A stretch of DNA of 64,000 nt from NCBI RefSeq assembly GCF_988242995.1, contig NZ_OZ547043.1; one strand, given 5' to 3'. Shown here one piece after another: positions 25,935-29,023 of this stretch (position 1 is its first letter; each line of letters begins with the position of its first letter). Below the pieces are notes generated by a model. That model saw nothing but the letters and a program-made list of their open reading frames with translations, searched no databases and was not told the origin of the DNA. A program made the translations under genes and the position numbers.

Positions 25935-26167
25935 TGAGATCCCGTTATTTTTATCAATTTTTGTTGCTATCCGATCGCAAAAAAGCCACGTCATATGATC
26001 AGATAATTCTGATAATGATAGACGCTATTTAACACTTCACACGGTTTGTATATGGAAAAGCATTTTGCTTTTTGTATTCAATTTAGACAGAATTTTATTA
26101 ATCATTTCAGGGTAATGGGGGGATGAGATGTTGCGTAACAGGGCCAGAAGGCTAGACTACAAAATAA

Positions 26168-27172
<1,005 letters not shown>

Positions 27173-27217
27173 CAAAAGCAATTTTTCCGGCTATCTGTAT
27201 ACAAAAACGCCGCAAAG

Positions 27218-27232
27218 TTTGAGCGAAGTCAA
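27218..27232 (+). promoter_or_regulatory. FNR-binding site of fnrS promoter
   Basis: TTTGAGCGAAGTCAA resembles TTGAT-N4-ATCAA, centred about 41 bp upstream of predicted FnrS 5' end. Confidence 0.6.
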
Positions 27233-27267
27233 TAAACTCTCTACCCATTCAGGGCAATATCTCTCTT

Positions 27268-27389
27268 GCAGGTGAATGCAACGTCAAGCGATGGGCGTTG
27301 CGCTCCATATTGTCTTACTTCCTTTTTTGAATTACTGCATAGCACAATTGATTCGTACGACGCCGACTTTGATGAGTCGGCTTTTTTTT
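27268..27389 (+). ncRNA. fnrS: FNR-activated small RNA FnrS
   Basis: GCAGGUGAAUGCAACGUCAAGCGAUGGGCGUUGCGCUCCAUAUUGUCUUACUUCCUUUUUUGAAUUACUGCAUAGCACAAUUGAUUCGUACGACGCCGACUUUGAUGAGUCGGCUUUUUUUU; intrinsic terminator; zntB-dbpA intergenic. Confidence 0.85.
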
Positions 27390-27446
27390 GCCTGTTATTT
27401 ATCAGCGTCTACCCTTTAAGAGTCCACCCAATGACCGGAGGGAAAT

Positions 27447-27620
27447 ATGACGACACTTATTTATTTGCAAATTCCTGTCCCTGAACCGATTCCTGGCGAT
27501 CCTGTTCCAGTGCCCGATCCGATCCCTCGCCCGCAACCCATGCCTGACCCACCACCCGATGAAGAACCGATTAAATTGTCGCATCGTGAGCGTAGATCTG
27601 CGAGGATACGCGCCTGCTAA
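27447..27620 (+). CDS. Candidate small proline-rich protein (57 aa), unverified
   Basis: ATG preceded by GGAGGG at spacing 5; MTTLIYLQIPVPEPIPGDPVPVPDPIPRPQPMPDPPPDEEPIKLSHRERRSARIRAC. Confidence 0.35.
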   Translation: MTTLIYLQIPVPEPIPGDPVPVPDPIPRPQPMPDPPPDEEPIKLSHRERRSARIRAC

Positions 27621-27649
27621 CTTTGCGTCGATGACCACGAGAATAGATT

Positions 27650-29023
27650 GTGACCGCTTTTTCTACCCTGAATGTTTTGCCTCCCGCCCAACTCACGAAC
27701 CTTAATGAGTTGGGTTATTTAACCATGACGCCGGTGCAGGCCGCCGCGCTTCCGGCGATCCTTGCCGGAAAAGATGTTCGCGTGCAGGCGAAAACCGGCA
27801 GCGGCAAAACGGCGGCTTTTGGCCTCGGCTTGTTACAGCAAATTGATGCGTCGCTATTTCAAACCCAGGCTTTAGTGCTGTGTCCTACGCGTGAACTGGC
27901 GGATCAGGTGGCAGGTGAATTGCGTCGGCTGGCGCGTTTTCTGCCAAATACCAAAATTTTGACGTTGTGCGGTGGTCAACCGTTCGGTATGCAGCGTGAT
28001 TCGTTGCAACATGCGCCGCATATTATCGTGGCAACGCCGGGCCGTTTGTTGGATCATCTGCAAAAAGGCACGGTATCACTGGATGCGTTGAATACGCTGG
28101 TGATGGATGAGGCCGACCGCATGCTGGATATGGGATTTAGCGACGCCATTGATGATGTCATCCGTTTTGCGCCTGCATCTCGACAGACGCTTCTGTTTTC
28201 GGCAACCTGGCCGGAAGCCATCGCCGCAATCAGCGGACGAGTGCAACGCGATCCTTTGGCGATTGAAATTGACTCAACAGATGCTTTGCCACCCATTGAA
28301 CAACAATTTTATGAGACATCCAGTAAAGGCAAAATTCCTCTGTTGCAACGGTTATTAAGCTTGCATCAGCCATCCTCTTGTGTGGTGTTTTGCAATACCA
28401 AAAAAGATTGCCAGGCTGTCTGCGACGCGCTGAATGAAGTAGGGCAAAGTGCATTGTCGTTACACGGCGATCTGGAGCAACGTGATCGCGATCAGACCCT
28501 GGTACGTTTTGCTAACGGTAGCGCCCGTGTACTGGTTGCGACTGATGTTGCTGCGCGAGGTCTGGATATTAAATCGCTTGAGCTGGTGGTGAACTTTGAG
28601 CTGGCGTGGGATCCTGAAGTTCATGTGCATCGCATCGGTCGTACAGCGCGTGCAGGAAATAGCGGTCTGGCGATCAGTTTCTGTGCCCCGGAAGAAGCAC
28701 AGCGGGCCAATATCATTTCTGACATGTTGCAGATAAAACTTAACTGGCAAACGCCGCCAGTTAATAGTTCCATTGTGCCGCTGGAAGCCGAAATGGCAAC
28801 GTTATGTATCGATGGCGGGAAAAAAGCCAAAATGCGCCCGGGTGATGTATTAGGTGCGCTGACAGGAGATATCGGGCTTGATGGCGCAGATATTGGCAAA
28901 ATCGCCGTGCATCCGGCGCATGTCTATGTCGCGGTGCGTCAGGCTGTTGCTCATAAAGCATGGAAACAGTTACAGGGCGGGAAGATTAAAGGAAAAACGT
29001 GCCGGGTGCGGTTATTAAAATAA
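27650..29023 (+). CDS. dbpA: ATP-dependent RNA helicase DbpA (DEAD-box)
   Basis: 457 aa; AKTGSGKT Walker A, DEAD box (VMDEADRM), SAT. Confidence 0.95.
   Translation: MTAFSTLNVLPPAQLTNLNELGYLTMTPVQAAALPAILAGKDVRVQAKTGSGKTAAFGLGLLQQIDASLFQTQALVLCPTRELADQVAGELRRLARFLPNTKILTLCGGQPFGMQRDSLQHAPHIIVATPGRLLDHLQKGTVSLDALNTLVMDEADRMLDMGFSDAIDDVIRFAPASRQTLLFSATWPEAIAAISGRVQRDPLAIEIDSTDALPPIEQQFYETSSKGKIPLLQRLLSLHQPSSCVVFCNTKKDCQAVCDALNEVGQSALSLHGDLEQRDRDQTLVRFANGSARVLVATDVAARGLDIKSLELVVNFELAWDPEVHVHRIGRTARAGNSGLAISFCAPEEAQRANIISDMLQIKLNWQTPPVNSSIVPLEAEMATLCIDGGKKAKMRPGDVLGALTGDIGLDGADIGKIAVHPAHVYVAVRQAVAHKAWKQLQGGKIKGKTCRVRLLK

Follow-up and report, generated by a model that had tools for sequence, protein, structure and literature searches.

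The small-protein gene ynaL between fnrS and dbpA: a conserved acidic proline-rich core and a nucleotide-invariant 3′ end

The open reading frame (ORF) located between fnrS and dbpA in the window, i.e., the whole stretch of 64,000 nucleotides analyzed here, corresponds to ynaL of E. coli. The find is genuine, but RefSeq, Pfam and the small-protein literature already contain the gene. Taking all the evidence jointly, we regard it as probable that this genuine, known gene has its own promoter, that it encodes an acidic rod acting in trans and that it is coupled to dbpA in the E. coli clade. The modestly new part of the present analysis is the separation of ynaL into a core selected at the protein level and a nucleotide element linked to dbpA, together with the stand-alone homologues.

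Identity, layout and candidate promoter of ynaL

The ORF comprises 57 codons on the + strand (27447–27620), runs from ATG to TAA and encodes MTTLIYLQIPVPEPIPGDPVPVPDPIPRPQPMPDPPPDEEPIKLSHRERRSARIRAC, a product with 16 proline residues, including PPP at residues 35–37 (27549–27557). The Shine-Dalgarno (SD) sequence GGAGGG (27437–27442, + strand) is separated from the ATG by a 4-nt spacer (AAAT), or by 5 nt when counted from GGAGG. Upstream, the fnrS sRNA gene including its intrinsic terminator occupies 27268–27389 on the same strand, as delimited by Rfam (RF01796, match at 27268–27385, 134.8 bits) and by a terminator scan, which places the stem at 27362–27381 and the T-tract at 27382–27389; the distance from the end of the T-tract to the ynaL ATG is 57 nt. 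Downstream, dbpA, which encodes the ATP-dependent RNA helicase DbpA, begins with GTG and extends from 27650 to 29023 on the + strand, as judged from sequence and annotation, leaving a gap of 29 nt after the ynaL stop codon. The gene order in this E. coli chromosomal window is zntB (26189–27172), fnrS, ynaL, dbpA and ttcA, the last on the − strand. An earlier note, made from the letters of the window, had described a proline-rich 57-aa peptide with a strong SD (GGAGGG, spacing 5) about 55 bp past the FnrS terminator; the peptide sequence was reproduced exactly, and both the SD and the position were recovered, at the spacing and distance given above. Elsewhere in the region, an FNR-box-like sequence, TTGAG-N4-GTCAA (27219–27232), stands 5′ of fnrS and is near-invariant across the loci, as is the entire fnrS gene, and a 15-codon ORF (26128–26175, + strand), named ‘protein YnaN’ in RefSeq, lies 13 nt 5′ of zntB and is possibly a zntB leader.

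When positions 27200–27700 were compared by megablast with 5,426 complete E. coli genomes, the locus was found in 5,392 of them, 5,390 at a coverage of at least 80%, and the RefSeq feature under the match reads “ynaL: proline-rich small protein YnaL” in about 5,390 of the 5,426; in NZ_CP023820.1, the CDS WP_001296046.1 lies between zntB and dbpA. The protein matches the dedicated Pfam family PF23677 “YnaL” with 136.9 bits (cutoff 27; E = 2.1e-40), residues 1–57 aligning with profile positions 1–57. The gene was placed between fnrS and dbpA, at K-12 coordinates 1409308–1409481, by VanOrsdel et al. 2018 (Proteomics, PMC6001520), and the 57-aa sequence given there is identical to that of the window. 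In that study, YnaL was detected by immunoblot of a chromosomal SPA-tagged allele, the detection relying on a C-terminal tag, and its signal in tetracycline ribosome profiling was positive; the paper also notes that a mass-spectrometry proteome study obtained zero peptides for any of its small proteins. In the library covered, a literature search on YnaL returned nothing dealing with it besides this paper (PMC6001520). The earlier note had offered the ORF as a candidate small protein, to be checked by start-site ribosome profiling, codon-level conservation and a translational fusion; the candidate proved to be a gene annotated in RefSeq and Pfam whose tagged product has been detected, and both the profiling and the tagged chromosomal allele were already published with positive results. 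With its frame, ATG and SD retained in 36 of 36 orthologous loci and a PF23677 match of E = 2e-40, the ORF is more than a product of chance.

It is likely, from the pattern of conserved bases, that ynaL has its own weak sigma-70 promoter, whose −35 hexamer would share bases with the sRNA terminator. The candidate (27388–27415, + strand) consists of TTGCCT (−35, 27388–27393), which overlaps the end of the fnrS terminator T-tract, a 16-nt spacer and TACCCT (−10, 27410–27415), and these hexamers are the sole conserved islands between the fnrS terminator and the ynaL SD. TTGC-type and TACCCT-type hexamers are exactly 16 nt apart in 32 of the 36 loci with spacers of variable sequence, and exact TTGCCT and TACCCT occur in 26 of the 36. 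The Erwinia equivalent, TTGCCA-17-TATGCT, was called by the promoter scan, and its −10 is again 31 nt from an SD-preceded ATG. The E. coli hexamers agree with the consensus at only 7 of 12 positions, and TTGCCT-16-TACCCT was not called when the E. coli sequence was scanned. A 9-nt deletion in three Citrobacter species destroys the −35 spacing.

Protein-level conservation and family breadth

A pattern scan with one genome per species yielded 30 loci from Escherichia, Citrobacter, Salmonella, Enterobacter, Lelliottia, Silvania, Pseudocitrobacter and Klebsiella; the total comparison covers 36 orthologous loci, and PPP motifs were counted over 31 species. The ynaL frame, ATG and SD are present in every one of the 36 loci, including those in which dbpA is not adjacent. 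Most orthologues have a GGAGG-type SD ahead of the ATG and a few Escherichia species have AAAGGG, and the spacing from fnrS to the ATG is 49–60 nt across the 30 scanned loci, with 99 nt in Klebsiella.

Conservation at the protein level is concentrated in a core of residues 18–41, DPVPVPDPIPRPQPMPDPPPDEEP (27498–27569, + strand), delimited by its codon conservation pattern. Here, 20 of 21 degenerate codon columns vary synonymously with the amino acids conserved, all four CCN codons being in use, and the variable columns at codon positions 1, 2 and 3 number 13, 12 and 27, respectively. The conservation of the core shows three-base periodicity, its dN/dS against E. coli ranges between 0.04 and 0.18, and conservation extends to the non-proline residues R28, Q30, M32 and D34. 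The codons vary freely while the amino acids stay conserved, which argues for selection on the core at the protein level, and this synonymous change under a conserved Pro-rich sequence is also the answer to the codon-level check proposed in the earlier note. The first ~17 residues are hypervariable (pN/pS ~0.6). As judged by these substitution patterns, purifying selection is acting on the amino-acid sequence of the Pro-rich core, and the N-terminus drifts almost freely.

The core consists of alternating x-Pro units and is net acidic, and the tail of E. coli YnaL is net basic. AlphaFold, run with the family alignment, predicted neither secondary structure nor a globular fold (pTM 0.23), and an extended conformation for residues ~21–40 with pLDDT ~90. 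The stand-alone homologues do not share this tail, which is therefore probably not the functional part of YnaL; by this comparison, the conserved part is a predicted acidic x-Pro rod of ~25 residues and not the basic tail.

Outside the close relatives, the family is small. A profile search of 1.84 billion representative proteins gave 32 YnaL matches only, and the divergent ones, by source name, come from Kosakonia, Phytobacter, Scandinavium, Erwinia and Mixta; they retain the core SDPxPTDPVPxPDPIPxPQPxPDPP and differ in their C-termini. Going by these sequences, the YnaL family is conserved across Enterobacteriaceae and extends to Erwiniaceae. All 36 loci share the order zntB-fnrS-ynaL, and the 30 from the pattern scan continue it with dbpA and ttcA. 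Phytobacter diazotrophicus and ‘Enterobacter sp. BIGb0383’ have zntB-fnrS-ynaL-ttcA, dbpA being missing from the fnrS–ttcA interval, and Erwinia has zntB-fnrS-ynaL-ttcA-dbpA, with ttcA inverted and placed between ynaL and dbpA. In each of these three, ynaL is followed by a stable hairpin (z = −2.2 to −4.2), the one in Erwinia carrying a U-tract. In Kosakonia cowanii, ynaL ends early (...PIKMSR*), 62 nt ahead of dbpA. A search with the DbpA protein for outgroup loci returned close relatives only. The loss of dbpA and the inversion of ttcA indicate that the locus has been rearranged repeatedly (L034, L038 and L035) with fnrS and ynaL kept together, and since loci without an adjacent dbpA retain fnrS-ynaL, the core belongs to a stand-alone gene tied to fnrS and not to dbpA.

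Some single loci are of note in themselves. E. coli strain E69 (L009, 3001–3138) carries a natural in-frame deletion of 33 nt, by which 11 residues of the Pro-rich region are lost and a 46-aa YnaL is left; short direct repeats, e.g., TCCTGTCCC and TCCTGTTCC, occur at 27473–27508 of the window, the segment of the E69 deletion. In K. cowanii (L037, 2725), the dbpA start is apparently TTG and not GTG, and Citrobacter sp. NCU1 (L024) has a 3-nt deletion right after the dbpA start codon.

The 3′ end of ynaL and the start of dbpA

Within the last ~55 nt of ynaL, two blocks are invariant, synonymous sites included, across the Enterobacteriaceae genera aligned. Block 1, CCGATTAAA[T/A]TGTCGCA (27567–27583, + strand), covers ynaL codons 41–46, and block 2, GATCTGCGAGGATACGCGCC (27595–27614, + strand), covers codons 50–56 with the rare codons AGA, AGG and ATA; between them, the sequence is variable and the length constant. 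Only 1 of 13 degenerate codon columns varies in the two blocks, compared with 20 of 21 for the core (Fisher p = 3e-7). The dbpA start region (27648–27663, TTGTGACCGCTTTTTC), which is made up of the first 14 nt of dbpA and the two preceding bases, is likewise near-invariant in nucleotides. The 29-nt spacer between ynaL and dbpA (27621–27649, + strand) is variable except for CGAGA (27638–27642), a weak SD-like sequence 7 nt 5′ of the GTG, and the distance from the ynaL stop to the dbpA GTG is 23–29 nt in most species and 14 nt in Klebsiella.

Block 2 is kept as non-coding DNA ahead of dbpA in K. cowanii, and neither block is present in Phytobacter, Erwinia or ‘Enterobacter sp. BIGb0383’, whose ynaL has no adjacent dbpA, so the tail element belongs to dbpA and not to YnaL. 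Together with the dbpA start region, the blocks look like an undescribed dbpA leader element.

Several searches were made for a structure or signal in this junction. No terminator was found by the scan of the ynaL–dbpA interval, and the fold of 27596–27650 is not stabler than shuffled sequences (z = +0.5). RNAalifold paired GUCGCA (27578–83), CG and GAAGAA (27561–66) with UGUGAC (27649–54), CG and UUUUUC (27658–63), respectively. This helix between block 1 and the dbpA start can form in 98.4% of the alignment cells, a count equal to that of the shuffled control; both sides are near-invariant, no two-sided change (covariation) was seen in it, and K. cowanii breaks one pair. If it forms, the block 1 helix would keep the dbpA start inaccessible until ribosomes have passed ynaL codons 39–46. 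The local hairpins of the junction are invariant across the alignment and equally uninformative. A CsrA-type GGA hairpin, GCG-AGGAUA-CGC (27600–27611), is invariant in most species, with one pair broken in Kosakonia, and a literature search on dbpA with CsrA gave nothing apparently relevant to E. coli dbpA. A permissive Rfam 15 scan of 27386–27760 returned nothing up to E = 10, and the junction has no second copy in E. coli, occurring in one place per genome.

Further candidates were tried and rejected. Mimicry of 23S rRNA was assessed against a 182-nt stretch around hairpin 92, which is 100% identical to E. coli rrl, and the local score of the junction was 14, below the random-window mean of 16.8. 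The duplex energy of FnrS with the junction was no better than that of random windows, full-length duplex folding being uninformative in any case. No sigma-70 promoter of dbpA was called inside ynaL by the scan, and by eye no hexamer pair spaced by 16–18 nt fits blocks 1 and 2; the consensus sequences of sigma-E, sigma-28, sigma-32 and sigma-54 promoters do not fit the tail either. A +1-frame ORF was set aside because its ATG (27559) is lost in six species. An antisense ORF of 78 aa (27402–27638) shares its codon boundaries with ynaL, so that the third-base changes of the Pro codons would alter its protein; the synonymous changes in the core would be non-synonymous there, which rules this co-registered frame out.

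Explanations for the conservation and comparison with known systems

Our best guess is that YnaL is a trans-acting, extended acidic proline rod and that the coupling to dbpA is incidental in the E. coli clade. As reconstructed from the sequence comparisons, YnaL would be a cytoplasmic, polyproline-II-like rod that works by binding a partner, and in E. coli and its closest relatives ynaL would open a probable unit with dbpA as the second cistron. Ribosomes on ynaL would probably deliver or unmask initiation at dbpA through translational coupling, and the DPPPD motif would make the flow to dbpA EF-P-sensitive in E. coli, as a side effect and not as a conserved purpose. A bicistron with such coupling is plausible because the interval holds no terminator or significant fold, the SD ahead of dbpA is CGAGA only and the start is GTG. 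The looser idea that translation of ynaL may have an effect on that of dbpA in the E. coli clade is also compatible with the data, given the gap of 23–29 nt in most species, the weak dbpA SD with GTG, the lack of a terminator and the invariant junction. The conservation of the non-proline core residues could equally come from recognition of the nascent chain inside the ribosome, i.e., in cis, as an alternative to a product acting in trans.

The earlier note had also suggested that consecutive prolines would make the ORF an EF-P-dependent stalling leader for dbpA. The PPP codons (P35–P37, 27549–27557, + strand) are a potential EF-P-dependent pause site, as DPPPD is a combination of strong EF-P-dependent motifs and a strong pause is expected in E. 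coli. Though PPP is present in 26 of the 31 species, it is missing in 5: E. albertii and three Citrobacter species have PSP instead (DPSPD), without any two prolines in a row, and C. amalonaticus has PPQ (DPPQED), so that an EF-P-dependent dbpA leader is not the conserved function. The view that ynaL is mainly a cis-acting leader, in which a DPPPD stall at low EF-P activity changes dbpA expression, has in its favor the closeness of dbpA in most species with its weak SD and GTG and no terminator between, the nucleotide-invariant junction, the helix that block 1, just 3′ of the PPP site, could form with the dbpA start codon in 98% of the alignment cells, and the fact, correlative only, that DbpA and EF-P are both commoner in exponential phase. 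Against it stand the conserved R28, Q30, M32 and D34, which a pure stall sensor does not need, the homologues that lack an adjacent dbpA and have a terminal hairpin of their own, the K. cowanii ORF that ends 62 nt short of dbpA, and the failure to find a covarying alternative structure. We consider this view unlikely, and ynaL is probably not just a stalling leader; the suggestion of the earlier note is therefore not supported as a conserved role, given the loss of PPP, the conserved non-proline residues and the homologues without an adjacent dbpA. Published EF-P data could not separate the effects, since DbpA itself has PP motifs. We hold it to be similarly doubtful that the tail of ~55 nt, the spacer and the first 14 nt of dbpA form a cis element through which ynaL translation, EF-P-sensitive via DPPPD in E. 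coli, gates dbpA, the trans function of YnaL predating the linkage to dbpA.

An action of nascent or released YnaL on the ribosome, whether as an arrest peptide, as a peptide resembling Pro-rich antimicrobials of the exit tunnel or by interaction with DbpA during 50S assembly, would accord with the conservation of specific x-Pro core residues, with a loose likeness of the core IPRPQP to the motifs of Pro-rich peptides (PRP), and with the gene for a 23S-rRNA-specific helicase that adjoins ynaL in the E. coli clade. However, the core is strongly acidic and Pro-rich peptides that target the ribosome are cationic; the linkage to dbpA is not universal, and the junction bears no likeness to the part of 23S rRNA targeted by DbpA (score 14, control mean 16.8), and for these reasons we rate this action as very improbable. 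The chance that the ORF is incidental, the region being a non-coding 5′ leader of dbpA in which RNA alone is conserved, appears close to negligible. It would explain the nucleotide constraint on the 3′ 55 nt and the block that is non-coding in K. cowanii, but the core codons change synonymously under conserved amino acids with three-base periodicity, the loci without dbpA retain the frame, ATG and SD just as all others do, neither the antisense nor the +1 frame shows conservation, and tagged YnaL has been detected on a published immunoblot.

Overall, the comparison narrows the options for YnaL, in that an acidic x-Pro rod is conserved, the gene is tied to fnrS and not to dbpA, and in E. coli its tail doubles as a nucleotide element of dbpA. 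Deletion of ynaL or tagging of its 3′ end is likely to disturb dbpA expression, and a gating of dbpA by ynaL, if true, would link 50S assembly capacity to elongation capacity.

Among known systems, leaders that sense EF-P or Pro-tRNA are represented by Salmonella mgtP, a Pro-codon leader acting on mgtCBR. The ynaL ORF resembles this type in being a short upstream ORF with consecutive Pro codons and a nearby gene with a weak start; it differs in that selection acts on residues other than proline and conservation does not extend to the consecutive prolines; neither a terminator nor an anti-terminator was found for it as an alternative structure, and the ORF also occurs without the downstream gene. 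With translationally coupled upstream small ORFs, ynaL-dbpA shares the short, fixed gap, the weak SD, the non-ATG start of the distal gene, the lack of a terminator and the conserved junction, the differences being the gap of 62 nt in K. cowanii and that coupling is here inferred from sequence. The alternating x-Pro units of YnaL (DP/VP/IP) and the extended rigid rod predicted for it recall the proline-rich spacer of TonB (EP/KP), but YnaL lacks both a membrane anchor and the C-terminal domain of TonB and is, by inference, cytoplasmic. Homology to TonB was rejected, as NF008084 scored 20.8 bits against a cutoff of 315 and PF16031 (Pfam TonB_N) 11 against 33, a low-complexity match to polyproline only. 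With the YnaL family itself (PF23677; WP_001296046.1), the window protein shares the identical sequence, the locus between fnrS and dbpA and the full-length HMM match; it shows no difference and is the type member of the family.
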